Shown here in pieces: positions 1-42,017 of a stretch of 64,000 nt of DNA. The DNA lies in IMG/VR virus record IMGVR_UViG_3300042922_000636; one strand, written 5' to 3'. Every line of letters starts with the position of its first letter. Positions within the stretch are counted from its first letter, which is position 1. This DNA is from an uncultured virus (IMG/VR IMGVR_UViG_3300042922_000636). Its lineage: Duplodnaviria > Heunggongvirae > Uroviricota > Caudoviricetes. The notes under the pieces are model-generated. The model saw only the letters and a program-made list of their open reading frames with translations, did not search any database and had not been told where the DNA came from. The position numbers and the translations under genes were made by a program.

Positions 1-3
1 ATC

Positions 4-255
4 ATGGCCGCCGAGGAACGCGAACCCGGCGTGTGGATCATGGTCGACCCGCTCGGGCAGGAGTACGGGCGCATCGAGATCCGCCGCACCCCGGACGGCA
101 TCCGCTACCGCGCCGAAGCGCTCGGCGAGCTCATCGGCTGGGGCACCTCGCTCCGCCAAGCCTGCGGGCGCGTGCACGACGTGTTCCTCCGGTCGATGGC
201 ACCTCACCGGGCGGCGCGCCCGGAATGGCCGTCCACCGGTCAGCGTGCACCGTGA
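4..255 (+). CDS. Hypothetical protein, 5'-truncated copy of 37799..38071
   Basis: Identical to the C-terminal 83 aa of the 90-aa ORF at 37799. Confidence 0.75.
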   Translation: MAAEEREPGVWIMVDPLGQEYGRIEIRRTPDGIRYRAEALGELIGWGTSLRQACGRVHDVFLRSMAPHRAARPEWPSTGQRAP

Positions 256-324
256 GAATCCGGTAACGACTGGACTGGGTGTCCGAACGGCGGAGTAGTC
301 TCATCGTCTCCCGAAGATGGGAGC

Positions 325-356
325 GCCCCCGCAGCTGCGTCAACAGCTACGAGGGC
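325..356 (+). promoter_or_regulatory. 5'-UTR RNA hairpin upstream of tyrosine recombinase
   Basis: GCCCCCGCAGCTG-CGTCAA-CAGCTACGAGGGC; covaries with the copy at 38141-38172. Confidence 0.65.
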
Positions 357-387
357 TGACGACACCAAGTCTCAGTTGGAGATCGCC

Positions 388-1293
388 ATGCAGAACGATA
401 CTGCGCGCACGCCCGCGCCCGACACCACCCTCGCCGACATCGCAGCCTCCGGGTTTCTCGCCCGCTACCGCGGCGAAACCATCACCCTCTACTCCGGGGA
501 CCTTCGCATCTTCTACGCCTGGTGCCGACGCCAGGACATCGACCCCCTGCAAGTCATGCGGTACCACCTCGAAGAGTTCCGCCGACACCTCGAAGACGAC
601 CGCGGCAACAGTCCTAGATCCGTCCGCCGGCGCCTGCAGACCCTCCGGACCTTCTACCGCCTCGCTGTCGCCGACGAGTACATCGACCGCGACCCCACCG
701 TCATGCTCCGCCTGCCCGAGAACCGGGCCATGAAGGAACCGCTCTGGCTCGACCGGTTCCAGGTCGGCACACTCCTCCGCGCAGCAGAGGCCGAGTCGCC
801 AGCGCATCACGCGTTGATCGCCCTGATGGTCATGCTCGGGCTCCGGGTGTCCGAGGCGTGCAACGTGCAGATCGAGGACTTCGCCGCCGACAAGCTCGGG
901 TACCGCGTCCTGCGCCTGATCGGGAAGGGCGGGAAGCCCGCAGCCATGCCCGTTCCGGTACCGCTGCTCCGCATCCTCGAGACTGCGCGCGGCGACCGCA
1001 CCTCGGGGCCGCTCATTCTTCGCCGCGACCGCCGTGCCCAGGACCGCAACGGCGCGTACGCGTGGGTGAAGATCCTCGCTCGCAAGGCTGGCCTGCCTGA
1101 GGACACCCACCCGCACTCTCTCCGGCACGCCGCCGTGACCGCAGTGATCGATTCGGGCGCCGATCTCCGCGAAGCACAGGAGTTCGCGCGGCACGCTGAC
1201 CCCGGTATGACGGTGCACTACTACCGCCGCGCCGGGAACCTCGACGCGCATGCAGCGCACGTCGCCGCGCGGGTATTCGCGTCGGCGGTCTAG
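388..1293 (+). CDS. Tyrosine recombinase (XerC/D-like)
   Basis: GLRVSE, GKGGK, HSLRH, RHAD and TVHYY catalytic motifs; GGAG RBS before ATG 388. Confidence 0.93.
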   Translation: MQNDTARTPAPDTTLADIAASGFLARYRGETITLYSGDLRIFYAWCRRQDIDPLQVMRYHLEEFRRHLEDDRGNSPRSVRRRLQTLRTFYRLAVADEYIDRDPTVMLRLPENRAMKEPLWLDRFQVGTLLRAAEAESPAHHALIALMVMLGLRVSEACNVQIEDFAADKLGYRVLRLIGKGGKPAAMPVPVPLLRILETARGDRTSGPLILRRDRRAQDRNGAYAWVKILARKAGLPEDTHPHSLRHAAVTAVIDSGADLREAQEFARHADPGMTVHYYRRAGNLDAHAAHVAARVFASAV

Positions 1294-1409
1294 ACGTCAA
1301 TCACGACTACGTCGCAGCCGCCGCACCACAGCCCATGACCGGCGGGACGCAGCACGGTCCCGCAGGTCGTGCAGCGTGGCTGCTGAACGTCGTCGAGGGG
1401 ATCAACCAT
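1290..1409 (-). CDS. 39-aa zinc-ribbon microprotein
   Basis: MVDPLDDVQQPRCTTCGTVLRPAGHGLWCGGCDVVVIDV with two CxxC; TACCCT-N6-ATG leaderless -10. Confidence 0.5.
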   Translation of the reverse strand: MVDPLDDVQQPRCTTCGTVLRPAGHGLWCGGCDVVVIDV

Positions 1410-1428
1410 CTCCGCAGGGTAGCCGCGA

Positions 1429-1450
1429 TGTCGGTGCCACACCGGAGACT
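1429..1450 (+). promoter_or_regulatory. PafBC/RecA-NDp-like leaderless promoter
   Basis: TGTCGG-N10-GAGACT-N6-ATG. Confidence 0.55.
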
Positions 1451-1456
1451 GTTCAC

Positions 1457-1693
1457 ATGCTCTCGACCGCCGACCTCCTCGCATTCGAGGACAGATGGGG
1501 CCAGCGGCACACGGGCGACAAGGAGGAAGCGATCCGCCGCGAGCTCGGCGAGACCCCGGCGAGGTATTACCAGCTGCTCGGCCGAGCGATTGACGACCCT
1601 GCAGCGCTGGCCGCTGACCCGCCGCTCGTGCACCGGCTGCAGCGTATCCGCGACGTGCGACGGGCGCAGCGCTCGGCCCGCCGCGCGGCCTGA
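1457..1693 (+). CDS. DUF3263-family protein
   Basis: LLAFEDRW...KEEAIRRELG..PARYYQLL...PLVHRL signature. Confidence 0.85.
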   Translation: MLSTADLLAFEDRWGQRHTGDKEEAIRRELGETPARYYQLLGRAIDDPAALAADPPLVHRLQRIRDVRRAQRSARRAA

Positions 1694-1709
1694 TCGCTAC
1701 ACTGCCCCC

Positions 1710-4094: not shown

Positions 4095-4171
4095 CCGGAT
4101 AACTTTACGGGATCACAGATCGGAGGTTGTGATCCAAACGGATAACAGCTAACGTGCTCCGTATGGATAAC
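4086..4171. promoter_or_regulatory. Three operators of the phage A genetic switch
   Basis: GTTATCC-N4-GGATAAC (4086), GTGATCC-N4-GGATAAC (4129), GTGCTCC-N4-GGATAAC (4154). Confidence 0.8.
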
Positions 4172-4399
4172 GCACCCTTCGACCACAGAGTGGCGGAGCT
4201 CGTCGAGAAGGCGATCAAGGACTCGGGAGAGTCCGTGAACGCCATCGCGAAGGCCGCCGCCGTGCCGTACGCGACGCTCGACCGGAAGCTCAAAGGAGCG
4301 ACCCCGTTCAACGTCTCCGAGCTCAACAGACTCGCGAGAGCGACGGGCAAGACCGCTAGCGAATTCCTGCCGGCGGACGACCCCAAGGCGGTGGCGTGA
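4163..4399 (+). CDS. Cro-like HTH regulator
   Basis: SVNAIAKAAAVPYATLDRKLKG HTH; first gene of the lytic operon; TAACGT -10, leaderless. Confidence 0.85.
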   Translation: MDNAPFDHRVAELVEKAIKDSGESVNAIAKAAAVPYATLDRKLKGATPFNVSELNRLARATGKTASEFLPADDPKAVA

Positions 4400-18001: not shown

Positions 18002-18583
18002 ATGCCGAAGCCTGAGGCTCCCTGCGGCACGTACACGGCCTTTCTGAGGCACCGTCGGCGCGGCGAACCGATCGATGACGCATGCGATCAGGCTCGCGAG
18101 GAGCGAAACGAGGAACGTCGCCGCTCCCGGGGCTCGACGAGGGTCACTTTCCGGCCCGAACCCCACGAAACGACTGGGCTCGGCCCGCGAGGGCAGGAGT
18201 TCTACGAGGCGTTGACGGTGGGCGTGCAGGTTCCCGCTGAGCGGCGTGCTCTGGTCATGGAAGCGGCCCGGATGGCGGATCGCCTCGAGGAACTGAACGA
18301 CGTGATTGCCGGCAAAGGCGTGCTCAAGCTCATGCATTTCCGCGTCCCGCACGCTCTCAACCCAGAAACGGGTGTGATCCGGGTCGAAATGAGCGTGGAT
18401 CACGTCATGGGCGAGGTCCGGCAGCTGCAACTGGCCTTCGAGCGGCTCGCCCGCAGCGTGTTCAAGGACATCGACGCCCTCCGAGCCAAGAGCGGCGGGG
18501 AGAGCGACGGTTTCGATGCATTCTTCGGCGGCGCTCCTAACGTTGTCGGGATCTCAACGGCCGCGTCTCGAAAACAGGCCTGA
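18002..18583 (+). CDS. Terminase small subunit
   Basis: EAARMADRLEEL...EVRQLQLAF; precedes TerL. Confidence 0.75.
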   Translation: MPKPEAPCGTYTAFLRHRRRGEPIDDACDQAREERNEERRRSRGSTRVTFRPEPHETTGLGPRGQEFYEALTVGVQVPAERRALVMEAARMADRLEELNDVIAGKGVLKLMHFRVPHALNPETGVIRVEMSVDHVMGEVRQLQLAFERLARSVFKDIDALRAKSGGESDGFDAFFGGAPNVVGISTAASRKQA

Positions 18584-20036
18584 GGCGGTCGGTTCGCACG
18601 GCGATCACGTTCTCCGGTTCCTGCAGGCGTGCGGCCTGACCCTCGACGAGTGGCAGGCGTACGTCATCGGCGGCCTGTTCGACGTCGGGCCCGATCAGAC
18701 GTGGGCGGCGACCGAGTTCGGCGCCCTGGTGAGTCGGCAGAACGGCAAGGGCGAGTTCCTCGTCGGGTACGACCTCGCGCACCTGTTCCTGTTCCCGCGG
18801 CTCGACAACCGCCGGAAGACGATCCTGCACACCGCTCATGAGATGAAGACCGCGATCGACGGCTTCCAGCGGCTCGTCGGTGTGATCGAGGCGAACCCGA
18901 AGCTCATGGCGCGGGTCGAGAACATCTACACCGCGAATGGGCAAGAGGGCATCGTTCTGAAGAAACGCGCCGGCCAGCAGCTCGCCGACCGGATCCGGTT
19001 CATCGCTCGCTCGAAGAGTTCCGGACGTGGTTTCACCGCCGACGTGCTGGTGTACGACGAGGCGCAGGAGCTCAGCCTGCAGGCGCAGCGCGCGCTGACG
19101 TACACGCAGTCGCAGATCGCGAACCGGCAGGAGCTGTTCACCGGCACCGTGCCCGAGGAGGGCGTCAACGACTCCGAGGTGTGGCAGGGCGTCCGCGATC
19201 GCGGCCGGTCGAAGCGCGGCCGGCGCACGGGGTGGATGGAATGGACCCCGGAAGGGTCCGAGGACCCGGAGATCGCCGACAGCATCGACTTCGGCGACCC
19301 GCAGGTGTGGTGCGACTCGAACCCGAGCCTCGGGATCCGGATGCCGCTGCAGTCGGTGGTGGATCAGTACGAGCGCGCGATGGAGACGGACCCTGACGGG
19401 TTCGCCCGGGAGCGACTATCGATCTGGCCGAACCCGCGTCCCGCCGTCGAGGCGAAACTCTCCGACCTGGACCTGGGGCAGTGGCGCAGCCACGTGGACC
19501 CCGAAGCGTCCGTGCGCGGTGACGGCGCGGTCATCTCCCTCGCCCTCGGGCGCGGCGGCGGGTTCGCGACGATCGGCAAGGCCATCCGGATTGACGCCGA
19601 CCACATCGCCGTCGAGCACCACAAGACCGCGGCGCAGACCCGCTGGGTCGCCGAGGAACTCGGGACGCTGAAGGCGGAGCTCGGGAACGCGCTGATCGTC
19701 GTCGACCCGAAGAACGCGGCGCCCGTGCTGTCGTCGCTGGATCAGGCGGGCATCAAATACCTGTCGATGAACCTCGACGAGATAGCCGCCGCGCACTCGC
19801 TGTTCATCGAGTACGTGAACGCCGGACTCGTGCCGCACCGCGACCAGGACGAGGTCACAAAGAGCCTCGCGCTCGCCACGACCCGCCCCCTAGGCCGCGC
19901 CGGCTCTACCTGGGAGCCCTCCGACCCGCGGAAGCCGATCTCACAAGCTCAGGCGGTCACGTGGGCGCTGTGGGGCGTTCTGAAGTCCGAGGCGACACCG
20001 AAGAAGAAGCCCGCGCGAGTGCGTGGTTACGCGTGA
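18516..20036 (+). CDS. Terminase large subunit
   Basis: Walker A SRQNGKG, Walker B LVYDEAQ, GTVP, SNPSLG. Confidence 0.93.
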   Translation: MHSSAALLTLSGSQRPRLENRPEAVGSHGDHVLRFLQACGLTLDEWQAYVIGGLFDVGPDQTWAATEFGALVSRQNGKGEFLVGYDLAHLFLFPRLDNRRKTILHTAHEMKTAIDGFQRLVGVIEANPKLMARVENIYTANGQEGIVLKKRAGQQLADRIRFIARSKSSGRGFTADVLVYDEAQELSLQAQRALTYTQSQIANRQELFTGTVPEEGVNDSEVWQGVRDRGRSKRGRRTGWMEWTPEGSEDPEIADSIDFGDPQVWCDSNPSLGIRMPLQSVVDQYERAMETDPDGFARERLSIWPNPRPAVEAKLSDLDLGQWRSHVDPEASVRGDGAVISLALGRGGGFATIGKAIRIDADHIAVEHHKTAAQTRWVAEELGTLKAELGNALIVVDPKNAAPVLSSLDQAGIKYLSMNLDEIAAAHSLFIEYVNAGLVPHRDQDEVTKSLALATTRPLGRAGSTWEPSDPRKPISQAQAVTWALWGVLKSEATPKKKPARVRGYA

Positions 20037-20048
20037 TGGGGGTGACAG

Positions 20049-21347: not shown

Positions 21348-21420
21348 CTCACCCGCGTCTGCGGGGTCAGGTACGCCAGCTGTCTCTGGCGGCATATCGA
21401 CGGATCTACGGAGGTCACCC

Positions 21421-22011
21421 ATGTCCATCCCCGCACCCACCGAACCGGCACCCCAGCCGACCGACCCGGCCCCGACGCCCGAACCGCCCGCCTACACGGC
21501 GCCTGCGAGTCAGGCCGAGCTCGACCGGATCGTCGAGGCGCGACTCGCCCGCGAGCGCGAGAAGTACAAGGGGCACGACGACTACAAGTCGAAGGCCGAG
21601 AAGTGGGATCAGCTCGAGGAAGAGAAGAAGACGCCGAGCGAGAAAGCGATCGAGGAAGCGACTCAGCGAGTCGCCGGCGAGACCGCGGCCAAGTACGAGC
21701 GTCGCATCGCCACGACCGAGATCAAGGCGCTGGCGGCTTCCGCCGGTTTCCTCGACCCGGCCGACGCGGTGCTCGTGGTCCTGGGGGATGGCGACATCCC
21801 GAAGAAGGACGACGACCTCGACGTCGACGAGCTCAAGCAGCGCGTCGAGAAGCTGGCGCAGGACAAGCCCTACCTGGTGAAGGAGCCGTCGCGGACCCCG
21901 CGCACGCGCCCCCAGCCTCGGCCGGGTGACAAGCAGGACGAGACCGCGAAGAGCGGGAAGAGCAAGGCTGCGGCCGCGCTCCGGCAGCTGGGCGCCAAGC
22001 GCCTGCAGTAG
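21421..22011 (+). CDS. Capsid scaffolding protein
   Basis: SQAELDRIVEARLARER...KPYL; GGAGG RBS. Confidence 0.85.
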   Translation: MSIPAPTEPAPQPTDPAPTPEPPAYTAPASQAELDRIVEARLAREREKYKGHDDYKSKAEKWDQLEEEKKTPSEKAIEEATQRVAGETAAKYERRIATTEIKALAASAGFLDPADAVLVVLGDGDIPKKDDDLDVDELKQRVEKLAQDKPYLVKEPSRTPRTRPQPRPGDKQDETAKSGKSKAAAALRQLGAKRLQ

Positions 22012-22064
22012 CCACCCTCCACCACTCACGCGCCGGCCAGGCGCTTTCATCGTCAGGAGACGAA

Positions 22065-22994
22065 ATGGCAGACATCTCGCGCGCCGAAGTGGCGACGCTC
22101 ATCCAGGAGGAGTACAGCAACGCGCTCCTCGACAACGTCGCGGTCAGCTCCGCAGCGATCGCCGCGTTCGGGACCGTGCCTCTCGGCACGAAGATCACGA
22201 ACGCCCCGGTCCTGACGACCCTCCCCGAAGCGGGCTGGGTATCGGAGTCCGCGACCGCCGCCGAGGGCGTCAAGCCGACCTCGCAGGTCGTCTGGGCCAA
22301 CAAGCAGTTCGTCGTCGAAGAGGTCGCGGTCATCATCCCGATCCACGAGGACACCCTCGAGGACGCGACCGAGGACCTCCTCGCGAACATCACCCTCCTC
22401 GGCGGTCAGGCGATCGGCAAGAAGCTCGACCAGGCCATCTTCTTCGGCGTGCAGAAGCCGGCGACGTGGCTCAGCCCCGACCTGCTGGCCGCCGCGACCG
22501 CCGCGGGCAACATCTTCCAGGTGTCGGCCACGCCCGGTGAGGACGACCTCGCGGGGTCGATCTTCCAGGCCGCCGGCGCGGTCGCCGACTCCGGCGCGAA
22601 CCCGACCGACATCGTGTCGTCCGCGGGTCTGCGCTTCCGTCTCGCGAACCTCCGCGCGACGGACGGCACGGCGATCCTGTCGCGCACGATGGGTGGCGAT
22701 GGCACGTTCTCGGACGACATCGCCGGTCTCGACGCGCAGTTCGTGAAGAACGGAGCCTGGGACAACGCCCTCGCGACCGCGATCATCGCGGACGGTGACC
22801 GGGTGAAGATCGGCGTCCGTCAGGACATCACGGTGAAGTTCCTCGATCAGGCCACGGTCGGCGGCATCAACCTCGCCGAGCGTGACATGGTCGCGCTGCG
22901 CTTCAAGGCCCGGTACGCGTACGTGCTCGGCAACACCATTACCACGCAGGGCACCGCCTCGGAGCCCGTCGCCGCTGTCACCCCGGCAGCCTGA
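22065..22994 (+). CDS. Major capsid protein (HK97 fold)
   Basis: AGWVSE..EG.KP, AVIIP, NLAERDMVALR motifs. Confidence 0.93.
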   Translation: MADISRAEVATLIQEEYSNALLDNVAVSSAAIAAFGTVPLGTKITNAPVLTTLPEAGWVSESATAAEGVKPTSQVVWANKQFVVEEVAVIIPIHEDTLEDATEDLLANITLLGGQAIGKKLDQAIFFGVQKPATWLSPDLLAAATAAGNIFQVSATPGEDDLAGSIFQAAGAVADSGANPTDIVSSAGLRFRLANLRATDGTAILSRTMGGDGTFSDDIAGLDAQFVKNGAWDNALATAIIADGDRVKIGVRQDITVKFLDQATVGGINLAERDMVALRFKARYAYVLGNTITTQGTASEPVAAVTPAA

Positions 22995-23008
22995 GCGAAG
23001 GAGCGGAC

Positions 23009-23269
23009 ATGGCAACGCTGACGCACCCGAAGGGGCGCACGGTCGTCGTTCCCGACGAGACCGTGGACTACTACACCTCGAAGGGGTGGGTGGTTCCCGG
23101 GAAGGCCGAGAAGAACGAGGCCGAGACGGTCGAGATCCCCGACGGCGAGCCGTCCGAGGACTGGTCCGCAAAGCAGCTGGACGCGTTCGCGGAGCGCGCC
23201 GGCATCGATCTCGGCGGCGCAACGAAGAAGGCCGACAAGGTCGCAGCGATCGCCTCGGCGAAGGCCTAA
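23009..23269 (+). CDS. HeH/LEM-like virion protein
   Basis: PSEDWSAKQLDAFAERAGIDL..TKKAD. Confidence 0.7.
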   Translation: MATLTHPKGRTVVVPDETVDYYTSKGWVVPGKAEKNEAETVEIPDGEPSEDWSAKQLDAFAERAGIDLGGATKKADKVAAIASAKA

Positions 23270-23287
23270 CGGGAAGGGGGAGGAGCG

Positions 23288-23728
23288 GTGGCTCTGAATC
23301 TGACGATCGAGGATGTGACTCCGTTCCTCCCCACTCTCGACCCAGCCCACACCGTCCGGGTCGGGGCATGGATCCCCGTGCTGTCGATGCTGCTGGACAA
23401 GCGGTACGGCGACCGGATCACGACCGACGACCGGGTGCTGTTCGTGTCCGCGTCGGCTGACGCACTCGAGCGGCGACTCTCCAAGCCCGCCGGCTTGATC
23501 GACTCGCAGAGCATCGGCTCAGCGGGCGTGAAGTACAACCCCCGCGCGGCTCTCGCGCGCTGGTTCCTGCCCGAGGAACTCGACCAACTTGACGACGCCT
23601 GCGGGCTCGGGGGCAGCATCCGTTCCGTCCGAGCCGCCGCACCCGACGGGGTCCGCTTCGGCAACTCCGAAGCCCCGTACATGGCGGCCGTCATCGCCGC
23701 CGGCATCCCGATCGCCGAGGAGAACTGA
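23288..23728 (+). CDS. Head-to-tail adaptor
   Basis: Synteny; SQSIGS..V.Y...FLPEEL. Confidence 0.7.
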   Translation: MALNLTIEDVTPFLPTLDPAHTVRVGAWIPVLSMLLDKRYGDRITTDDRVLFVSASADALERRLSKPAGLIDSQSIGSAGVKYNPRAALARWFLPEELDQLDDACGLGGSIRSVRAAAPDGVRFGNSEAPYMAAVIAAGIPIAEEN

Positions 23729-24090
23729 TGATCTTCCCGCACGGACGCACCGTCTACCGGATCCGCGGCGGGCTCATGCCGGACCCGTACAACCCCGACG
23801 CGCAGATCCCCGAAGACTGGGACAACCCCGACGTTCTGGATATCCCTGGGTCGTTCATCGCCCAGTCATCCACCTCGCTGCTCGGCAGTGCGACGCGCGA
23901 GCAAGCGGTCGAGTCAAAGTCGCTCTTCTGCGACGGTGAGCACGACGTGCAGAAGGGCGACCGGATCCGCGATGGCGGAGAAGGTGCACCGGTCTACACG
24001 ATCGACGGGATCCCGCCCGCGGCGGACTCGAACCCGTGGACGGGCTGGACGCCGCCGCGAGAGATCCCGCTGACGCGCTATGTCGGCTGA
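23728..24090 (+). CDS. Head-to-tail stopper
   Basis: DPY...DW...GDRI...YTIDG.P...NPWTG. Confidence 0.75.
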   Translation: MIFPHGRTVYRIRGGLMPDPYNPDAQIPEDWDNPDVLDIPGSFIAQSSTSLLGSATREQAVESKSLFCDGEHDVQKGDRIRDGGEGAPVYTIDGIPPAADSNPWTGWTPPREIPLTRYVG

Positions 24091-24104
24091 GAGGAGTGTG
24101 CCGG

Positions 24105-24383
24105 ATGGCTGTGGACTTCAACTCCGCATTCTTCGAGGCGCTGGGCCGCTCGCCGGGTGTGGTCGGGCTGGTCGACGCGGCCGCCGAGAAGATCGCCGCG
24201 ACTGCGCGCAGCACGGCCCCTGTTGACTCGGGCGACTACAAGCGTGGCATCGAGACGAGCGGCAAGTATCAGGACCGGTACGTGGGCCTGGTGGTCGGCA
24301 CTGACCCGAAGACGATGCTCATCGAGAGCAAGACCGGGAATCTGGCCCGCGCGGTCCGGCAGAACGTGAAGCGCCGTGGCTGA
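24105..24383 (+). CDS. Neck protein (HK97 gp10-like)
   Basis: APVDSGDY...IESKTGNLARA. Confidence 0.7.
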   Translation: MAVDFNSAFFEALGRSPGVVGLVDAAAEKIAATARSTAPVDSGDYKRGIETSGKYQDRYVGLVVGTDPKTMLIESKTGNLARAVRQNVKRRG

Positions 24384-24804
24384 CCCGGCGGTGATCTACC
24401 CGGACCTCGAGGACTACCTCATCGGCTGGTACCGGGCGGCGCTCGCAGCGCGTCCGGAGGCTGTGTGCGCCAGCGTCGTGGTCGCGCGGACGGAGTCGGA
24501 AGCGACGACGCCACCGAAGAAGCAACTCATCATCCGCGACGACGGCACCACCCGAGAGACGTTCGTCACCGGGCATGCGTCGATCGGGCTGACTGTCCTG
24601 GCGGGCACAAAGGCGAACCCGAAGGACGCCAAGGCGCTGGCGGCCATCGTGCTCGCGCTGGCGTCGCAGATTCCATCGGCCGACGCCGACAACCCCTTCG
24701 CGTCGCTCGATGCCGCCACAGGGCCGTACATGGTCCCGGAGGCGGCATCGCTCGCCCGGGTCTACTCGACCGCGACGTTCTCCGTCGCCGGCCGGCCCCT
24801 CTGA
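24376..24804 (+). CDS. Tail terminator
   Basis: IIRDDG motif; synteny. Confidence 0.7.
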   Translation: MADPAVIYPDLEDYLIGWYRAALAARPEAVCASVVVARTESEATTPPKKQLIIRDDGTTRETFVTGHASIGLTVLAGTKANPKDAKALAAIVLALASQIPSADADNPFASLDAATGPYMVPEAASLARVYSTATFSVAGRPL

Positions 24805-24896
24805 ACTTCACCCACTGGCGGACGACCTGTCTGCCGCCCACCCATCAACCGCGCCCCGGCACCGTCCGGGGCGTCTGCATATCAAGGAGATGATCC

Positions 24897-25490
24897 ATGG
24901 CTGCCGACAGCTCCGGCAACGACATCCTGGCGGTCGGCGTCCCGGTCACGGGATCCATCGGCTTCGCCCCGTTCGGGACCGACATCCCGACGTCCACGGA
25001 GGGTGCAGCGGACTCGCTGGTCCTCGACCCCGCGTTCGTGAAGATCGGCCTCCTGAAGGAGGACGGTGGTCCGCAGTTCGCGTGGGCCGCGGACGGAGAC
25101 CCGATCCGCTTCTGGCAGGAGGGTTACTCGATCCCCTCCGGTCTCGCGAACGTCACCCTGGCGATCACGGCTGCTGAGATCCTCGCGGAGCACGTGCGCG
25201 AGATCATCGCGGGCATCGCGCCAGACGCGAACGGCTACGTCGAGGTCGACGGCGGTGGGCACGCGACGCAATGGGTCGTGTTCACCGAGGAGATCTTCAA
25301 GAACGGTGCGATCCGCCGGCGTGTGGCCCCGCTCGTGACCCTCGCGTCCTCCACCGAGGACCGGTCGGAGCGTGGCGGCGTCATGGGCAACGCGCTGCTG
25401 TTCAACATCGGCCGGCACGCGTCGGTCGGCATGAAGCACTTCGGCGAGTGGGTGCTGCTCCCCGAAGACGCCGCGCCCGTCACGCCCTGA
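24897..25490 (+). CDS. Major tail protein
   Basis: AP.GT..P...GLLKEDGG...FWQ; AAGGAG RBS. Confidence 0.85.
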   Translation: MAADSSGNDILAVGVPVTGSIGFAPFGTDIPTSTEGAADSLVLDPAFVKIGLLKEDGGPQFAWAADGDPIRFWQEGYSIPSGLANVTLAITAAEILAEHVREIIAGIAPDANGYVEVDGGGHATQWVVFTEEIFKNGAIRRRVAPLVTLASSTEDRSERGGVMGNALLFNIGRHASVGMKHFGEWVLLPEDAAPVTP

Positions 25491-25576
25491 GCTGAGCCGG
25501 GCGGCGGTGCTCGTGGGTGACGCCGCCGCCCGACTCTCCACATCACCCGCATCACCCACGAAAGGACTCACCCACC

Positions 25577-25936
25577 ATGAGCGACACAGAGAAGCCGAAG
25601 CCGGACCCGATCCCCGTTCTCCTCGCGGAGCCCGGCGCTGACGAGCGCCCCACGTTCTACGTGATCGGTGACAACTTCCACGCGGTCACAAGCGACGGGA
25701 TGATCGTCGTTCCGCTGCGGTTCAAGACTGGCCTGTTCAAGAAGGTCATGGCGGCCCAGGGCGACAACCTCGAGCTGTTCCTCCTCCTCGTGGACGGCAT
25801 CGGCAACGAGGACACGATCGCGCAGCTCGACGAACTCGACATCTACGAGTCGATGCCCATCGCGATCGCGTACTTCCGCGCGTGGAAGGAACGCCAGGAC
25901 GCCTCCATGGGGGAAGCGCAGCGCTCCTCGAACTGA
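25577..25936 (+). CDS. Tail assembly chaperone (G)
   Basis: Between major tail and tape measure genes. Confidence 0.8.
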   Translation: MSDTEKPKPDPIPVLLAEPGADERPTFYVIGDNFHAVTSDGMIVVPLRFKTGLFKKVMAAQGDNLELFLLLVDGIGNEDTIAQLDELDIYESMPIAIAYFRAWKERQDASMGEAQRSSN

Positions 25937-26295
25937 TCGAGGAGCACCGCCCCGAGCTCACCTTTGACTTCCGCCGCTACTTCGGGCTCTCGCTGCGAGA
26001 CATCGGCGAGTCGATCACTTACGGCGAAGCGCTCCACCTGGTGTTCGAGCTCCGGAAGGAGTCCGGGTCGCACACACACATGGCCCGGTGGCACCTCTCG
26101 GAGACGGCCTCGCTCGCGGATCTCGCGACGATCCGGCACGCCGAGTGGTACATGAACGGCCACAAGAAGGAAAACACCCCCGAGATCGAGCTGCCGCGGC
26201 CGTGGCAGGCGCCCGATCCGAACGCCGACGTTACGCCCGAACGCCGGGCGGAGCTGAAGGCACAGCTGCAGCGACGCTCCGCGTTCGCCGCCTGA
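25577..26295 (+). CDS. Tail assembly chaperone G-T via -1 frameshift at G-GGG-GAA (25909-25915)
   Basis: Slippery run ATG GGG GAA; -1 frame open to 26295 (DFRRYFGLSLRD). Confidence 0.8.
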
Positions 26296-26319
26296 CCCAC
26301 AGGATCGAGGTGGTCGGCC

Positions 26320-28824
26320 GTGTCGATGCCTCAGGTCGGTGCCGGTGCGGTCGCCGTCGTCCCCACGTTCAAGGGCTTCCGCCGCGCCGTCGATTCTGAG
26401 GTCGACGGCGCGGCGAAGTCCGCTGACCGCGGGTTCCGTCGCGTCCTGTCCAAGACCGGCGACGACTCCGGCAAGGAAGCGGGACGGGGCTTTAAGCGCT
26501 CGTTCGAGTCCCAGTCGACCGGGTTCGCGAACAAGGGCGCGCGTGAGCTGGAGCAGGCCATCGCGAAGTCCGCGCGGGCGCTGTCCCAGTCTCGCCTGCA
26601 GGAGCAGGACGCCGCCGGCAAGGTGCGTCTCGCGGAAGTTCAGCTTGCCGAGGCGCGGAAGAAGTACGCCGCCGACTCGTCGCAGGTGGTGCGCGCTGAG
26701 GAGCGTCTCGCGACCGCGAACCGTCAGGTGCAGTCCGCGCAGGAGAAGACCAAGGCTTCCACCCAGGATCTCCGCGCAGCGCAGACCCGCCTGGCCGAGG
26801 CTGCAGACGACGCTGGCGACAAGTTCGTCTCTTCATGGCGTCGAGCCAACGATCGAGTCGGCGACGTGTTCAAGGGCTCGTTCCTCGGAACGGCCGCCGC
26901 GAACCTCGTCACGGGGCTCGGAGCCAACCTCGGGCGGGCCATAGGCGACGGCCTGCGGCAGGGTCTCGACTTCGCGCTCGGGACCATCGACATCGCGTCG
27001 GACCTGAACGAGTCCGTCAACGCCGTGCGCGTGTCATACGGCGACGTAGCGGATCAGGTGCTCCGGCTCGGCGACGACAGCGTGAACGCTTTCGGTCTGT
27101 CGAAGCGCAACCTGAACGGATTCGCCACGCAGTTCTCCGCCTTCGCGCGGACCATCCGCTCCGACAACCCTGCGGGGTTCCTCGAGGAGCTGATCACGCG
27201 CGGTGCAGACTTCGCGTCGGTCTACAACCTCGAAGTCGGCGACGCACTTTCCCTCTTCCAGTCCGGCATCGCGGGTGAGACGGAGCCGCTTCGCCGCTTC
27301 GGTATCGACCTGTCTGCGGCCGCCGTCGAGGCGTACGCCTACGCGTCCGGGATGGCGGAGACGGGCACCGAGCTCACCGAAGCGCAGAAGCAGCAAGCGC
27401 GCTACGCGTACCTCCTGGCGCAAACGGACGGTGTCGCTGGCGACTGGATCAACACGTTCGACTCGTTCGCGAACACCCAGAAGCGCAACGCGGAGACGTG
27501 GGACGACCTGCAGGCGAAGATCGGCGACGGGTTCCTCCCGATCGCCTCCGCGGTGGCTTCGATCCTCGCAGACGAAGTCTTCCCGGCCATTTCGGAACTC
27601 GTGGACAAGCACGGGCCCGAACTGACGGCGGTGTTTCAGGATGCGATCCCCGCGTTCTCGGAACTGGCTGAAGAGCTGCTGCCCAAGCTGCCCGGTCTGT
27701 TCGAGTCCGTAGCGGAGTCGCTGCCGGGCATCCTCGACTTCCTGACGACAGCCGTGCCTCCGTTCATCGACTTCATCGGGTCGCTGAGTAACGGTGCGCT
27801 GCAGATCAAGGAATTCATCGACGGAGCGGTAGCCAACTTCCAGAACGGTGCGGAGCAGTGGGGAGCGTTCCTCGAGCCATTCGCTGATCCCGAGGTGTGG
27901 TCGAACTGGGCAAACGGCGCGGACCAGATCAACGACTTCTTCACAGGGCTCGGCGAGAACCTGGAGAACGGGTCGGGTCAGCTCGACACGTTCTTCGAGG
28001 ACATGGGCATGAAGCTCGAGAACGGCGGCACCCAGTGGGGTGACTTCTTCGAGGGCTTCGGAGCGAACCTCTCGAATGGCGCCGACCAGTGGGCCGGATT
28101 CGGGCAGTGGGTCGCTGATGTCTGGAACGGACTCATCGCCAACTTCGCGAACGGCGGCTCGCAGATCGGGAGCTTCTTCGGCTTCTTCGGCGGCGCGCTC
28201 GCCAACGGGGCCAGCCAGATCAGCTCGTTCTTCGGGTTCGTCGGGGCCGCGTTCTCTAACGGTGCCGGCCAGATCGGGTCCTTCGCGGCCACGGTCGGGC
28301 AGAAGATCAACGAGGCCGTGGGTTTCGTCGGCAGCCTGCCGAGCCGAGCGACCGAGGCGCTGACGGGGCTGGGGACTCTGCTCCTCTCCTCTGGGCGTGC
28401 GCTGATTCAGGGCTTCATCGACGGCATCACCGACCGCATCGGCGACGTCGGGGACGCGGTCGGCAGTGTCGTGGACTGGGCGCGCGGGTTCTTCCCGAAC
28501 TCGCCCGCCAAGCGCGGCCCGCTCTCGGGTGCCGGCTGGACTTCCCTGAAGGAGTCCGGTGGCGCTGTGCTCGAGCAGTGGACGTCTGGCTTTGGGCGCC
28601 CGGATCTCACGGGAGTGCTCGCGCCGGCGTTCTCCCTCGTTGGTGCGCCGTCTGTGGCTACTTCCGCAGGCTCGCCCGGTGGGGGTGCGATGCCGACCAG
28701 CTTCGTGCTGGTTGACAAGGACGGCCAGTTCATCAGCCGGGTACGTGTCGAGGCGAGCCAGGTGGTGCGGGACTCGCAGCAGCAGACGGCTGTGAGCTTG
28801 TCGAACGGGGAGGCTTCGCGTTGA
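26320..28824 (+). CDS. Tape measure protein
   Basis: 834 aa, Ala-rich, ASDLNES and GETEPLRRFG motifs, repeated NG(A/G)xQ units. Confidence 0.93.
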   Translation: MSMPQVGAGAVAVVPTFKGFRRAVDSEVDGAAKSADRGFRRVLSKTGDDSGKEAGRGFKRSFESQSTGFANKGARELEQAIAKSARALSQSRLQEQDAAGKVRLAEVQLAEARKKYAADSSQVVRAEERLATANRQVQSAQEKTKASTQDLRAAQTRLAEAADDAGDKFVSSWRRANDRVGDVFKGSFLGTAAANLVTGLGANLGRAIGDGLRQGLDFALGTIDIASDLNESVNAVRVSYGDVADQVLRLGDDSVNAFGLSKRNLNGFATQFSAFARTIRSDNPAGFLEELITRGADFASVYNLEVGDALSLFQSGIAGETEPLRRFGIDLSAAAVEAYAYASGMAETGTELTEAQKQQARYAYLLAQTDGVAGDWINTFDSFANTQKRNAETWDDLQAKIGDGFLPIASAVASILADEVFPAISELVDKHGPELTAVFQDAIPAFSELAEELLPKLPGLFESVAESLPGILDFLTTAVPPFIDFIGSLSNGALQIKEFIDGAVANFQNGAEQWGAFLEPFADPEVWSNWANGADQINDFFTGLGENLENGSGQLDTFFEDMGMKLENGGTQWGDFFEGFGANLSNGADQWAGFGQWVADVWNGLIANFANGGSQIGSFFGFFGGALANGASQISSFFGFVGAAFSNGAGQIGSFAATVGQKINEAVGFVGSLPSRATEALTGLGTLLLSSGRALIQGFIDGITDRIGDVGDAVGSVVDWARGFFPNSPAKRGPLSGAGWTSLKESGGAVLEQWTSGFGRPDLTGVLAPAFSLVGAPSVATSAGSPGGGAMPTSFVLVDKDGQFISRVRVEASQVVRDSQQQTAVSLSNGEASR

Positions 28825-36863: not shown

Positions 36864-37640
36864 CTATTCAAAGGTGAGGTTGTCGCGGTGTGCGCCGGTC
36901 ACCACACGCCGGATCGCATTGGTGCGCCATACGATGCCGAGATCTGATTGCTCGGACACGCGGCCTGAATAGATCCCGAGTAGGTACGTCTGTGGGGCCG
37001 AGTAGATAGCCATTCCGCCGTCGGCGCTTGGGACTTGACTCGAGTGGAACAGCACGGGTGAGCCAGATTGGCCGGGCCTCGTGCGACTGTCCACTAGAAA
37101 TGTCGGCTTGCCATCGAAATCAAAGTCGGGTTCGCTGGCGACGGTTCCCCTGCTCCATACCCCGATGCCGCCAGCGGTTCGCAAACCGAATGGGAAACCG
37201 ACGATGCTGACGTCGGTTGTGGGCGTTACCAGCACGGCCGGGTCGGTCACGTCGTACGGATAGAGGTCTACCGACGGGTCGTCGGCGAGCGGCAGCGCCG
37301 CAATGTCAAAGGCGCCTCCATCGTGAGGATCGACCAACCACAGTGCAGCGCCGGCTTGATCGTAAAGGGAGTAGACGACCTGCACCCATGTGCCGAGCTG
37401 TGAAGCCGCGTTCTGCCAGACAACCAAGTGCGACGGGAGGGCTGCGCTGCTGCCCGCTGGTAGCTCTGATCCTGGTATGCGCCCGGTAGTTACGTGCCAA
37501 TTGGTGACGAGGAAGCGGCGGCCCCCATCCGCCGCGACAAATGCAGTGCCCGTGCTGAGCGTGACTGGCGCATCCCCGCCAATTGGGTAGCGGACAGCTT
37601 CGACGTAGAGCGACTGCACAGACGGCTGCAAGATGGGCAT
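36864..37640 (-). CDS. Trypsin-like serine protease
   Basis: GTAF, VTNWHV (His), DIAAL (Asp), GFPFG and GQSGSPV (Ser). Confidence 0.88.
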   Translation of the reverse strand: MPILQPSVQSLYVEAVRYPIGGDAPVTLSTGTAFVAADGGRRFLVTNWHVTTGRIPGSELPAGSSAALPSHLVVWQNAASQLGTWVQVVYSLYDQAGAALWLVDPHDGGAFDIAALPLADDPSVDLYPYDVTDPAVLVTPTTDVSIVGFPFGLRTAGGIGVWSRGTVASEPDFDFDGKPTFLVDSRTRPGQSGSPVLFHSSQVPSADGGMAIYSAPQTYLLGIYSGRVSEQSDLGIVWRTNAIRRVVTGAHRDNLTFE

Positions 37641-37723
37641 GCCGTTGACGTTATCGGACGCGTGCGGGGAGGCCTCGGGCCTCGGACTCCCACTCGTCCC
37701 AAGCAAAGCAGGAAATACTCTCA

Positions 37724-37765
37724 GCCCCTCGGGCTCGCCAACACGGCGGGCTCGAGGGGTTCTTT
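37724..37765 (+). terminator. Intrinsic terminator
   Basis: CCCCTCGGGCTCGCC-AACAC-GGCGGGCTCGAGGGG followed by TTCTTT. Confidence 0.7.
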
Positions 37766-37770
37766 CGTCA

Positions 37771-37792
37771 TGTCCGGAGTGCATGCGATCAT
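37771..37792 (+). promoter_or_regulatory. PafBC-like leaderless promoter
   Basis: TGTCCG-N10-GATCAT-N6-ATG. Confidence 0.45.
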
Positions 37793-37798
37793 CCCGGC

Positions 37799-38071
37799 AT
37801 GCCCGACTGGCACCCGATCATGGCCGCCGAGGAACGCGAACCCGGCGTGTGGATCATGGTCGACCCGCTCGGGCAGGAGTACGGGCGCATCGAGATCCGC
37901 CGCACCCCGGACGGCATCCGCTACCGCGCCGAAGCGCTCGGCGAGCTCATCGGCTGGGGCACCTCGCTCCGCCAAGCCTGCGGGCGCGTGCACGACGTGT
38001 TCCTCCGGTCGATGGCACCTCACCGGGCGGCGCGCCCGGAATGGCCGTCCACCGGTCAGCGTGCACCGTGA
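37799..38071 (+). CDS. 90-aa hypothetical protein
   Basis: Duplicated at the window start; leaderless geometry. Confidence 0.8.
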   Translation: MPDWHPIMAAEEREPGVWIMVDPLGQEYGRIEIRRTPDGIRYRAEALGELIGWGTSLRQACGRVHDVFLRSMAPHRAARPEWPSTGQRAP

Positions 38072-39110
38072 GAATCCGGTAACGACTGGACTGGAAGTCC
38101 GAACGGCGGAGTAGTCTCATCGTCTCCCGAAGATGGGAGCGCCCCGACAGGTGCTGTAACACCGGCCGGGGCTGACGACACCAAGTCTCAGTTGGAGATC
38201 GCCATGCAGAACGATACTGCGCGCACGCCCGCGCCCGACACCACCCTCGCCGACATCGCAGCATCCGGGTTCCTCGCCCGCTACCGCGGCGAAACCGTCA
38301 CCCTTTACTCAGGCGACCTTCGCATCTTCTACGCCTGGTGCCGACGCCAGGACATTGACCCGCTGCAGGTCAAGCGGTACCACCTCGAAGAGTTCCGCCG
38401 ACACCTCGAAGACGACCGCGGCAACAGTCCTAGATCCGTCCGCCGGCGCCTGCAGACCCTCCGCACCTTCTACCGCCTCGCTGTCGCCGACGAGTACATC
38501 GACCGCGACCCCACCCTCATGCTCCGCCTGCCCGAGAACCGGGCCCTGAAGGAGCCGCTCTGGCTCGACCGGTTCCAGGTCGGCGCGCTCCTCCGCGCAG
38601 CAGAGGCCGAGTCGCCCGCGCATCACGCGTTGATCGCCCTGATGGTCATGCTCGGGCTCCGGGTGTCCGAGGCGTGCAACGTGCAGATTGAGGACTTCGC
38701 CGCCGACAAGCTCGGGTACCGCGTCCTGCGCCTGATCGGGAAGGGCGGGAAGCCCGCAGCCATGCCCGTTCCGGTACCGCTGCTCCGGATCCTCGAGACT
38801 GCGCGCGGCGACCGCACCTCGGGGCCGCTCATCCTCCGCCGCGACGGCCGCGCGCAGGACCGCAACGGCGCATACGCGTGGGTGAAGATCCTCGCTCGCA
38901 AGGCTGGCCTGCCTGAGGACACGCACCCGCACTCTCTCCGGCACGCGGCCGTGACCGCAGTGATCGACTCGGGCGCAGATCTCCGCGAAGCCCAGGAGTT
39001 CGCGCGGCACGCTGACCCCGGTATGACGGTCCACTACTACCGTCGTGCCGGGAACCTCGACCGTCACGCTGCACACGTCGCCGCGCGCGTGTTCGCATCT
39101 GCGGTCTAGA
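37817..39110 (+). repeat. Direct repeat copy 2
   Basis: Matches 1-1294. Confidence 0.97.
38204..39109 (+). CDS. Tyrosine recombinase, near-identical to 388..1293
   Basis: Same catalytic motifs; few amino-acid changes. Confidence 0.93.
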   Translation: MQNDTARTPAPDTTLADIAASGFLARYRGETVTLYSGDLRIFYAWCRRQDIDPLQVKRYHLEEFRRHLEDDRGNSPRSVRRRLQTLRTFYRLAVADEYIDRDPTLMLRLPENRALKEPLWLDRFQVGALLRAAEAESPAHHALIALMVMLGLRVSEACNVQIEDFAADKLGYRVLRLIGKGGKPAAMPVPVPLLRILETARGDRTSGPLILRRDGRAQDRNGAYAWVKILARKAGLPEDTHPHSLRHAAVTAVIDSGADLREAQEFARHADPGMTVHYYRRAGNLDRHAAHVAARVFASAV

Positions 39111-39869: not shown

Positions 39870-39921
39870 GTGTTCCCCCGGTGTGATGCTCTGGTGAGTG
39901 TACCGAGCAACCGGGGGAGCA

Positions 39922-41148
39922 CTACTGCTCTAGGTAAGCGGTGAGTTGCATCATCGCGCCGCGCATCCGGTCCTGGTTGCCCTTGGTCTTGTAACCGCGG
40001 GTCATGGACCTTGTGGAGTGTCCGACGATCTCCTGGAGAATGTCTTCCGGGACGCCGGCAAGGTAGAGCAGGTCTACCGCTGTGTGCCGGAGGTCGTGCA
40101 GGCGGACGCTGCGGTTCTCGCCGAACACGGACCGCATGAGATTGCCCCATTCGGCGGTGTCCTGGTCGGGGTCGATCGGGCGCCCGCCGTCCCGCGTGAA
40201 CACGAGCCCGTGGGGCCCGGGTTCGAGGGTGCTGATGTGCCGCTCGAGCAGCGTACGGAGGGGGTCGACGAGTGGGATGATGCGCCAGCCCGCGAGGGAC
40301 TTCGGGCGGGTCCAGTACAGGCCGCCTTCGATGCGGCGGTACTCGAAGTCGCTGCGTGTGCGGAGGATCCGGTCGGGGCAGTATCCGCCCTTGACCATCC
40401 CGCACCCGCCGCCGCAGCCGTGTTCCCACGGGAGGCGGCGCAGCTGCCACGACAGATCGAGGGTGTCGGTGACGCGGTCGAGCTCGAGGCCGATGACTTC
40501 GCCGCGGCGCGCCCCAGTGAGGAGGCTCGTCGCGCGCCGGGTGCCGTCTGCTCGGCCGGCGCACACCTGCAGCAGCTGCAGCGACTCCTCGGGCGTGAGG
40601 ACGTCGAGTTTCACGGCTGCCTTGCGCGGTGCCTTCACGAGTTGTGTCGGGTTCCGCGGGATCTTCCCCTCCCGCATGGCCGCGGTGAGGGCGCTCGACA
40701 GGATCCGGTGCGCGTTGAGCGCGTAGGTGGACGACAGGCCCAACCCGGTCATGCGGTCGTGCATCCGCCGGATGGAGGCGGCGTTCAGCTTTTCGAGCTT
40801 CGTCTTCGCGCCGAGGCCCGGGGAGATGTGCGTCTTTACCATGGACCGGTAGCCGGCGAGGGTGCCGGGCGCGACGTCGTGGATGGCGATGTGGTCGAGC
40901 CAGTACTCGAGCCACTGCTCGACCGTAGGTGAGGACGTCGCAAGGTCTCCGCTGCGGCGCAGGTCTTCCTTCACCTCAGCGAGCCGGGTTAGCAGGGTCG
41001 TCTTGTCGCGGGACCGGATGGTCTTCCGCCGGCGGTCCTTTGCGAGTCCTGTCGGGTTCGGGAGTTCGACGTACGCCTGCCAGTACTTGAGGGGCTGCGT
41101 CCGATCGGCTGGCACCCGGAACAGTGCGCCTTCGCCCTTTCCCCTCAC
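39922..41148 (-). CDS. Tyrosine integrase (phage B)
   Basis: GEG arm-binding N-terminus, TVEQWL..W, GARRGE, HDLRH, VGHS, MTRGY; next to the att core. Confidence 0.95.
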   Translation of the reverse strand: MRGKGEGALFRVPADRTQPLKYWQAYVELPNPTGLAKDRRRKTIRSRDKTTLLTRLAEVKEDLRRSGDLATSSPTVEQWLEYWLDHIAIHDVAPGTLAGYRSMVKTHISPGLGAKTKLEKLNAASIRRMHDRMTGLGLSSTYALNAHRILSSALTAAMREGKIPRNPTQLVKAPRKAAVKLDVLTPEESLQLLQVCAGRADGTRRATSLLTGARRGEVIGLELDRVTDTLDLSWQLRRLPWEHGCGGGCGMVKGGYCPDRILRTRSDFEYRRIEGGLYWTRPKSLAGWRIIPLVDPLRTLLERHISTLEPGPHGLVFTRDGGRPIDPDQDTAEWGNLMRSVFGENRSVRLHDLRHTAVDLLYLAGVPEDILQEIVGHSTRSMTRGYKTKGNQDRMRGAMMQLTAYLEQ

Positions 41149-41372
41149 AGGCGGTTTCCCGTGCTGGCGGTGGGGGCGGTGGTCATCTGCTGTGTCCTTC
41201 TGCTGGGTCGGGTGTGGTGCTCTCCCCTATGACGGGGTGGCGGGTCTTCTGAGGGTCATTCCGGAGCCGTTCACTGGTGCTGGTCTCGGGTGGTGTCGCG
41301 GGCGTCGTTGACCGCGGGCCCTCTTCTTTTGCGCACGAACCTGGTCACCGCTGTTCCTTCCGGCCTGGATGG

Positions 41373-41393
41373 GGTGTATCCGATGGTGTATCC
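41373..41393 (+). repeat. Integrase arm-type sites, left of core
   Basis: GGTGTATCCGAT-GGTGTATCC tandem. Confidence 0.75.
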
Positions 41394-41484
41394 ATCGCGG
41401 ACTGTCGCTGACAACCGCTGACGTCTGTTTGGACAGGCTAGCAGTCCTCAGCGACGCTGAGCAAGTCTCACCGGACAGGAACTT

Positions 41485-41530
41485 ACGACTGAAAATCGTG
41501 AGGTCACGGGATCGACGCCCGTCGGAGCCA
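41485..41530 (+). other. att common core = 3' half of tRNA-Phe(GAA)
   Basis: ACGA-CT-GAA-AA-TCGT anticodon arm, ACGGG-ATCGACG-CCCGT T arm, CGGAGCCA acceptor strand; 5' half absent. Confidence 0.88.
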
Positions 41531-41532
41531 CT

Positions 41533-41570
41533 GGCCCTTTCCTAGGCTTCTACTGGGAAGGGGCCTTTTT
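41533..41570 (+). terminator. Terminator downstream of the att core
   Basis: GGCCCTTTCCTAG / CTGGGAAGGGGCC followed by TTTTT. Confidence 0.8.
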
Positions 41571-41585
41571 AATGCCCTCCGAGGG

Positions 41586-42017
41586 CTACCCGAAAAGCCG
41601 CGGTGTATCCGATGGTGTACCCGATCTCTTGGCATCCAGAACGTAGGCGCGAAACAGCCGCGTGGTGACGCCGAGCTCGGACACCAGCCGGCCCTCGTCA
41701 GGGCACCAGCGGTACAGATCCTCGAGCTCAGCCGGGTCGATCAGGTGGTGCGCAGCGAAGCGGTCCGCCTGGTGCTCATGCTTCGGCCGGTCGTCTTCAT
41801 GCTCGAGCGCCGCGTGCCCGACGCCGTGCGCGAGCGCGTTCCGCTGATGGACGGCGCGGAGCTTTGAGTGCACGACGAGCGTGCGGTACTCCGGCAGCCA
41901 GAGCTCGTGTGCGGTGCGGAGTGGCCGCACGATGACCTGCAGCCCTAGCTCGTCCGCGTGCTCCCACGGGTCGTAGGCACGGCCTCTACGACGGTTCGTC
42001 GGATTCCAGTTCGTCAT
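41586..42017 (-). CDS. ImmA/IrrE-family protein with degenerate HExxH
   Basis: YDPWEHA..LG...RNALAHGVGH...HEHQADRFAA..LI...ELGVT. Confidence 0.8.
   Translation of the reverse strand: MTNWNPTNRRRGRAYDPWEHADELGLQVIVRPLRTAHELWLPEYRTLVVHSKLRAVHQRNALAHGVGHAALEHEDDRPKHEHQADRFAAHHLIDPAELEDLYRWCPDEGRLVSELGVTTRLFRAYVLDAKRSGTPSDTPRLFG
41602..41625 (+). repeat. Integrase arm-type sites, right of core
   Basis: GGTGTATCCGAT-GGTGTACCCGAT. Confidence 0.75.

Follow-up and report, generated by a model that had tools for sequence, protein, structure and literature searches.

The window analysed in this study is a stretch of 64,000 nucleotides from the uncultured virus IMGVR_UViG_3300042922_000636 (IMG/VR; Caudoviricetes). 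It holds two different temperate phages in series, hereafter phage A and phage B, which are joined through a shared module consisting of a small open reading frame (ORF) and a Xer-like tyrosine recombinase gene (Table 1). Comparison of the window with itself by BLAST found this module as the single strong repeat, in which 1–1294 recurs at 37817–39110 with 95.8% identity over 1296 columns (56 mismatches in 1294 positions, or 95.7%, when aligned without gaps). G+C content is 65–69% across the whole window. A first-pass annotation of this DNA had reported the repeat, which both alignments bear out, and had offered three readings of it: a co-integrate of two phage circles, a tandem poly-lysogen, or an assembly chimera. 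According to our results the assembly chimera is the best supported, so that the join from A to B was probably made by an assembler, while the co-integrate is possible and the poly-lysogen is rejected.

Unit A comprises 37,816 bases (1–37816) and is one full siphophage genome of ~37.8 kb, as had been claimed for the DNA enclosed by the two copies of the repeat. ORFs were chosen by third-position G+C, and 89 of them were scanned against Pfam and 84 against PHROGs. The gene set of A includes a serine integrase, a repressor/cro pair, an antirepressor, a YqaJ/RecE-like exonuclease, methylases, SSB and HNH, together with both terminase subunits, portal, scaffold, capsid, connectors, tail, tape measure and holin. 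A also encodes a GDSL/Mtd_N protein, and no endolysin was recognisable in A at the thresholds used in these scans.

In phage B, the small ORF and the recombinase gene of the second repeat copy are followed by genes for a DUF3263 protein and a membrane protein. The early genes of B include RecE/RecT, a replication initiator, SSB and a C5 methylase, and its late genes comprise both terminase subunits (TerS, TerL), portal, a minor head protein, a P22-type coat protein, and connector and tail genes up to the end of the window. The packaging and head genes differ between A and B. No host DNA was seen in the 64 kb, where all ORFs matched by Pfam or PHROGs are phage-like and unmatched ORFs cannot be judged; among the family-matched ORFs, the earlier statement that phage genes lie on both sides of the attachment core of B, with no host DNA present, thus holds. 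A DNA search of a phage collection returned only short matches of 72–83% to Mycobacterium, Gordonia and Microbacterium phages, and no close cultured relative. A and B are two new temperate siphophages of a high-G+C actinobacterial soil host, which are real whatever the nature of the join, and both are in unintegrated, circular gene order.

Table 1. Positions of the module, the attachment site and other features of phages A and B in the window (aa, amino acids; HTH, helix-turn-helix; R, perfect repeat of 278 bases; G001 and G002, related viral records; see text).
Feature	Position	Strand	Remarks
R, copy 1	1..278	+	Identical base for base to 37817–38094; window starts at first base of R
Shared module, copy 1 (A allele)	1..1294	+	Small ORF and Xer-like tyrosine recombinase
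83-aa ORF	4..255	+	Entirely within R; 88% aa relative in G002
Tyrosine recombinase, 305 aa, A allele	376..1293	+	PF00589 5.8e-23 and SAM-like N domain; 98% aa to B allele
Large serine integrase of A, 476 aa	2293..3723	-	Resolvase, Recombinase and Zn_ribbon_recom; phrog_95 1.6e-76
Repressor-like ORF of A, 81 aa	3849..4094	-	Divergent from cro-like gene; HTH character judged by eye only
cro-like gene of A	4154..4399		BetR/HTH match
Second small tyrosine recombinase of A, 271 aa	15810..16625	+	Upstream of packaging genes
Packaging, head and tail genes of A	18002..28824	+	Include TerS, portal, scaffold, connectors and tail; Pfam, PHROGs
TerL of A	18516..20036	+	
Capsid of A	22065..22994	+	
Tape measure of A	26320..28824	+	
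Trypsin-like peptidase of A	36864..37784	-	Final A-specific gene ahead of the join; Pfam
A-type left flank of module	37696..37816	+	7 mismatches to B's own flank in G001, the last at 37816
R, copy 2	37817..38094	+	Sole point at which the path can pass from A to B
Shared module, copy 2 (B allele)	37817..39110	+	Identical to G001
Tyrosine recombinase, 305 aa, B allele	38192..39109	+	PF00589 3e-23
Tyrosine integrase of B, 408 aa	39922..41148	-	PF00589 and Phage_int_SAM_3; phrog_1 9.7e-60
P-arm pair of arm-type sites	41373..41393	+	GGTGTATCC GAT GGTGTATCC
Attachment core of B	41485..41533	+	49 bases; 3' part of tRNA-Phe(GAA), anticodon stem to 3 bases past discriminator
IrrE-like metalloprotease and HTH repressor of B	41586..42381	-	Pfam, PHROGs; cro is next in the gene list of B
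P'-arm pair of arm-type sites	41602..41622	+	
Gap between the two G001 ends	43438..43554	.	117 bases
Early and late genes of B	43619..64000	+	Pfam, PHROGs
Second small tyrosine recombinase of B	52093..53061		
TerL of B	54315..55640	+	TerS precedes in the list
P22-type coat of B	59411..60328	+	
tRNA-Asn (GTT)	60532..60605		ARAGORN

The two copies of the module begin with one perfect run of 278 bases, which we call R. The first mismatch lies at 279/38095, and the second-longest identical run between the copies is 98 bases. On either side of R (37696–37816 and 279–1294) the flanks are 94–95% alike, i.e., 5–6% divergent, and a mismatch-free run of 278 bases would arise at the mean divergence with a chance of ~5e-6. 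A perfect patch within such flanks points to a recent exchange between A and B, and hence to a shared host. The patch, which covers the 83-aa ORF, would then be a sign of recent exchange or gene conversion; alternatively, it might mark an element under very strong constraint. The ORF itself had no family match in the Pfam and PHROGs scans. Other similarities between A and B found by BLAST are short and weaker, at 79–85% (SSB, the second tyrosine recombinase and a few others).

Phage B also occurs alone. The nearest record, G001, is an IMG/VR entry of 36,791 bases labelled 'linear' (CheckV 92%). Its positions 1–5741 match window 43437–37696 at 99.9% and its positions 16346–36791 match window 64000–43555 at 100%, and the 10.6 kb between these two parts are B's own late genes, which lie outside the window. 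Within this late part, a stretch of 481 bases is 86% like the holin region of A. The two ends of G001 fall so close together on the window (Table 1) that G001 represents a permuted, closed B genome with a circle of ~36.9 kb. In the closed order the late genes of B lead into the module and the module into the early genes of B, and protein matches agree with this order.

Comparison with G001 further locates the switch between the two phages. From 37817 to the right, G001 shows no difference from the window; it differs at 37816, 37741, 37711, 37707, 37701, 37698 and 37697, and is unrelated to the window left of 37696. Compared with B alone, the homology of the second copy therefore starts 121 bases further left than the repeat within the window, with 7 mismatches in these 121 bases. 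This comparison identifies the sequence left of 37817 as the flank of A and the sequence right of 37817 as the allele of B.

Base 1 of the window aligns to 37817, immediately to the right of the final mismatch between the left flanks of A and B. An edge of a de Bruijn graph would begin at exactly this base, given that k-mers common to both phages can start only once the last difference has been passed. A random start would fall on the first base of R in only ~1 of 37,816 cases. The exact start at R, together with the occurrence of B alone in G001 and in the soil metagenome X2 described below, makes an assembly chimera across the repeat the best supported of the three readings. We therefore consider it probable that the A-to-B join was made by the assembler, as a walk R-a-R-b over a figure-8 graph.

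This explanation would require two separate, related temperate siphophages in one soil sample, A (~37.8 kb) with a serine integrase and B (~36.9 kb) with a tyrosine integrase. R would be identical in both and would stand at the start of a homologous 1.4-kb module with the 83-aa ORF and the Xer-like recombinase gene. In the assembly graph R would collapse to one edge with two ways in (A-late and B-late) and two ways out (A allele and B allele), and the assembler would print R, a, R, b as a single contig. The A-to-B join would then have no counterpart in a real molecule, or at most in a minor one. Here the start of the window is taken as the start of the record, and the record is taken as the graph path R, a, R, b.

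No identical run other than R exceeds 98 bases, and R would accordingly be the sole unresolved repeat in an assembly with k=127. We infer this word length only from a related IMG/VR record, G005, and the window's own assembler may differ. The terminal repeat of G005 is exactly 127 bases. Circular contigs of SPAdes-type assemblers end in an overlap of k bases, and G005 thus indicates that assemblies with k=127 are in use for samples of this kind.

The record resembles inter-genome chimeric contigs in its shared exact stretch longer than the likely k, in its start at an edge boundary, in the occurrence of one partner alone elsewhere, and in the serial arrangement of two different phages, each with a complete gene set. 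It differs from typical chimeric contigs in that the depths of the two phages nearly match in the run from which the record probably derives. In a benchmark, inter-genome chimeras make up <5% of contigs of at least 10 kb, with ~1% for metaSPAdes and fewer for MEGAHIT (PMC5610896). Chimeric contigs of this type are also described in a second study (PMC4247695).

Two soil metagenomes, X1 and X2, were compared as k=31 (Logan) contigs with 27001–47000 of the window at 90% likeness. X1 contained 98% of the sampled words of 33001–43000 and is the probable source of the record, so that it does not count as independent; X2 contained 52%. Contigs built with k=31 cannot phase across 278 bases, and depth is given as one figure per contig, which we used as soft evidence only. 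X2 holds B without A, since A-specific bins had depths of 0–5 as compared with ~8–15 over B. One X2 contig of 8,773 letters runs from the late genes of B through the module to 41511, with 4 differing letters. Contigs of X2 break at 43420/43554, the same place as the ends of G001, while X1 covers this place without a break; the sequence of 43438–43554 looks ordinary.

In the long error-free contigs of X1, depth was 59.4 over A (28480–37771) and 59.4 and 62.2 over B (39001–41406 and 41512–46972, respectively), so that coverage of the two phages, which the first-pass annotation had proposed to compare, was about equal. The shared part had a depth of 101.3 at 37831–38262 and of 169.8 and 126.8 in the module bins. 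X1 contigs break at 37771, 37831, 38262, 38618, 38922 and 39001, and they neither support nor contradict the link from A to B. None of the contigs of X1 or X2 bridges 37771–38262 together with both flanks.

Several of these results weigh against a join made by the assembler. In X1, A and B stand at ~1:1 and R at about twice their depth, and independent phages would match each other so closely only by luck. Moreover, assemblers that work with read pairs would normally halt at a repeat they fail to resolve, and the crossing from a to b may mean that pairs supported the path. Phage A, finally, was not found standing alone in any collection searched. The equal depth is partly a selection effect, because genomes that match in depth cannot be told apart by an assembler and are more easily misjoined.

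An alternative explanation might be that the record represents a real co-integrate or hetero-concatemer, in which a single crossover in the 278-base stretch fused the circles of A and B into one molecule of 74.7 kb. The module would then be the direct repeat at both joins, and the assembler would have reported the molecule correctly. Such a fusion could arise by homologous recombination, helped by the phage RecE/RecT-type genes, or by site-specific recombination through the shared tyrosine recombinase. It would explain the equal depth of A and B, the doubled depth of R and the fact that the assembler did cross the repeat. The join is also structured as a Campbell-type single crossover in the longest perfect homology, the recent exchange suggested by the perfect patch would have placed both phages in one host, and recombination functions are present in both (a YqaJ/RecE-like exonuclease in each, and RecT in B). 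Yet the assembly graph of a fused molecule is the same as that of two circles, so that the structure of the record is no argument for fusion. Furthermore, B occurs alone in G001 and X2, the flanks of the recombinase gene yielded no recombination site common to distant relatives, and no read or contig at hand spans R. A fusion about twice the size of either genome could exist only intracellularly, but would need to be the predominant form at ~60x in a soil sample; a 74.7-kb molecule would not fit a head sized for ~37 kb. We consider the co-integrate a doubtful explanation, though one to be taken seriously.

Campbell-type co-integrates form through shared homology and are resolved by tyrosine recombinases of the Xer/dif or Cre/lox type. 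The record resembles such systems in the direct repeat at the joins, in a crossover placed in the longest perfect homology and in a tyrosine recombinase gene inside the repeat. It differs from them in that the partners are two different phages and not the dimer of one replicon, and in that the search beside the recombinase gene identified no recombination site. That the 74.7-kb fusion is a real intracellular molecule of two actinophages sharing a host, maintained at 1:1 in the soil population, seems unlikely to us.

The attachment site of B has the unintegrated (attP) form. Read by eye, 41485–41530 contains the anticodon stem and loop (GAA), the variable loop, the T arm and the 3' acceptor strand of tRNA-Phe. 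No matching 5' half of tRNA-Phe lies upstream of the core, and ARAGORN called no whole tRNA there, with tRNA-Asn as its only call in the window. When 37000–44000 was searched against Rfam with a permissive threshold, nothing tRNA-like was matched at the core, and all hits were chance ones (E of at least 1). In both soil runs, contigs that fit the window only at 41485–41533/4 continue leftwards into ...GGCTCTGTAGCTCAGTTGGTAGAGCGC, which matches the 5' half of tRNA-Phe, and run rightwards into unrelated DNA. The extent of this match sets the core at ~49 bases. The sequence GGTGTA[T/C]CC has four copies in the 64 kb on both strands, at 41373, 41385, 41602 and 41614, as compared with ~1.1 copies expected by composition. 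All four thus belong to the paired arm sites on either side of the core, and the integrase gene of B adjoins this arm-flanked core. The by-eye reading, the 9-mer count and the contigs of the runs confirm the earlier claim of a core with only the 3' half of tRNA-Phe and with matching arm repeats. The attP of B (41373–41622) is intact and whole.

Attachment sites of tyrosine integrases that overlap the 3' part of a tRNA gene are common among temperate actinophages. The attP of B is like these sites in its core formed by part of tRNA-Phe, its paired arm sites on both sides and its adjacent integrase gene, and nothing about this attP is unusual by comparison. Among 401 sampled genomes of the class of Cryobacterium, the 49-base core was found exactly in one genome and with one mismatch in one more. 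This rarity among the sampled genomes points to a narrow host group. An integrase like that of B is absent from both core-bearing genomes (G390 and G232), where the best match is 38% over part of the protein; both have only XerC/D-like genes (31–35%).

An intact attP inside the record might also be expected if A and B were a tandem poly-lysogen, lying side by side at one attB with a middle junction that re-creates an attP-like site. Both phages do carry integrases, and the attP of B looks as whole as the middle junction of such an array would. Tandem prophage arrays, such as those of lambdoid lysogens and CTX-phi/RS1, are alike in their head-to-tail genomes and in the intact-looking attP inside the array. 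In contrast to such arrays, the join here (37817–38094) is not at the attachment site but 3.4–3.7 kb from the core of B (41485–41533), and this distance rules out the poly-lysogen of the first-pass annotation. In addition, the integrases belong to different families, serine in A and tyrosine in B, so that A and B would have no common attB; the join is a homology of 1.3–1.4 kb with a perfect run of 278 bases and a whole phage ORF, unlike an attachment core; and there are no host flanks, or any other host DNA, in the 64 kb. Neither phage is permuted at an attachment site. We therefore reject an integrated prophage or tandem poly-lysogen, which is the least credible of the explanations.

The recombinase of the module has 305 aa and is ~49% identical to an annotated tyrosine integrase of Arthrobacter phages. 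Six of its residues (R157, K184, H247, R250, H273 and Y282) are invariant in all four aligned sequences, and we take these to be the catalytic residues from the R-K-H-R-H/W-Y motif. Flank alignments of 5 upstream and 4 downstream loci revealed no shared inverted-repeat site beside the gene, and flank conservation was confined to the close relatives A, B and G003. When genome contigs were scanned with the recombinase alignment, the sole matches were in Cryobacterium sp. Y11 (51% aa) and, weakly, in a planctomycete, both too distant for the integrated layout to be inferred from them.

Each of the two phages has three recombinase genes. A carries the serine integrase and two small tyrosine recombinases, and B carries the arm-type tyrosine integrase and the same two. 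The second small recombinase gene is found a short way ahead of the packaging genes and shows 81% DNA identity between the two phages; its product is ~45–49% identical in aa to the integrases of Curtobacterium phage Barebow and of the mycobacteriophages Grizzly, Sneeze and Typha. Possibly, the 305-aa enzyme is a working integrase in relatives, and A and B may then carry two integration modules each. Candidate roles of this enzyme in A and B include those of a second integrase, a resolvase or another function.

If the Xer-like recombinase were indeed a second integrase, the record might be a provirus cut-out with its left edge at base 1, the attachment site of this enzyme where R begins, and both phages integrated in tandem through it. 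This would be in line with the annotation of the ~49% identical homologues as tyrosine integrase, with the position of base 1 only 3 bases ahead of the ATG of the 83-aa ORF, and with the related provirus G003, which ends 3 bases after its recombinase gene. However, the host side of G003 lies 3' of the gene and not 5' of R, and both G001 and X2 show the module uninterrupted in the interior of the phage sequence. The homology between the flanks of A and B extends 121 bases left of 37817, unlike the boundary of an attachment core, and no host sequence supports a cut-out. We regard this explanation as very improbable. Base 1 as a physical genome end (cos) was also considered and rejected, because the terminase genes lie 18 kb, and HNH 16 kb, downstream of the two copies of R.

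A join made by the assembler remains the explanation that we favour, and the single copy of the module in related records speaks for it. The recombinase is present in three other records (G001 and the more distant G003 and G004), each with a single copy and with the order late genes, module, integrase. G003 is an IMG/VR provirus in which A-like tail genes are followed by the Xer-like gene (87% aa). G005, mentioned above for its terminal repeat, is a circular relative of A with 40,287 bases and a 93% identical serine integrase, and it lacks the module, as do the two other serine-integrase records that were checked (G006 and G007). G002 (42.5 kb) has the 83-aa ORF and the DUF3263 gene without the recombinase gene. 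The absence of the module from G005 and its partial presence in G002 mark it as a mosaic unit with a patchy occurrence in related soil phages. A 43-base piece of R had two exact matches in viral contigs (G001 and G002) and none in metagenome contigs. Three protein queries of the viral contigs gave three loci for the recombinase, six loci in five records for the serine integrase and none for the peptidase, and did not find phage A alone, whether by the A allele or by the late flank of A.

Some further features lie away from the join. The hexamer TTATCC has only two copies in the 64 kb, both within a palindrome TTATCC-N4-GGATAA. One palindrome (4087–4102) lies between the repressor-like and cro-like genes of A and the other (2166–2181) just 3' of the serine integrase gene, and half-sites occur at 4140 and 4165. 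The palindromes are probably operators. Direct repeats of 33 nt (51451–51483 and 51626–51658) and of 30 nt (13766–13795 and 50520–50549), both at 97%, end in start regions resembling GGAGG-N-ATG, and the 30-nt pair is common to A and B at otherwise unlike places. These repeats may be conserved translation or transcription signals. The tRNA-Asn gene sits in the structural operon of B, between the coat gene and the following head gene.

Should the join be an artefact, the record needs to be divided into its two phage genomes before it enters statistics on genome size, completeness, host or diversity, all of which would be misled by a 75-kb 'circular' genome in which packaging and integration genes are present in two sets. 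The case would also provide a reusable rule for recognition, namely a record that starts at the first base of its longest perfect repeat, combined with one partner that closes on itself elsewhere. If, instead, the fusion were real, the recombinase module would be a portable site of fusion and resolution between unrelated phage genomes. The record would then offer a direct snapshot of the origin of mosaic phages, and would count among the rare cases in which a co-integrate of heterologous phages is seen directly in nature. In either case the record yields real and modestly useful findings, namely a pair of new temperate actinophages, each with three recombinase genes, a well-defined attP located in tRNA-Phe, and a perfect patch of 278 bases left by recent exchange between the two.

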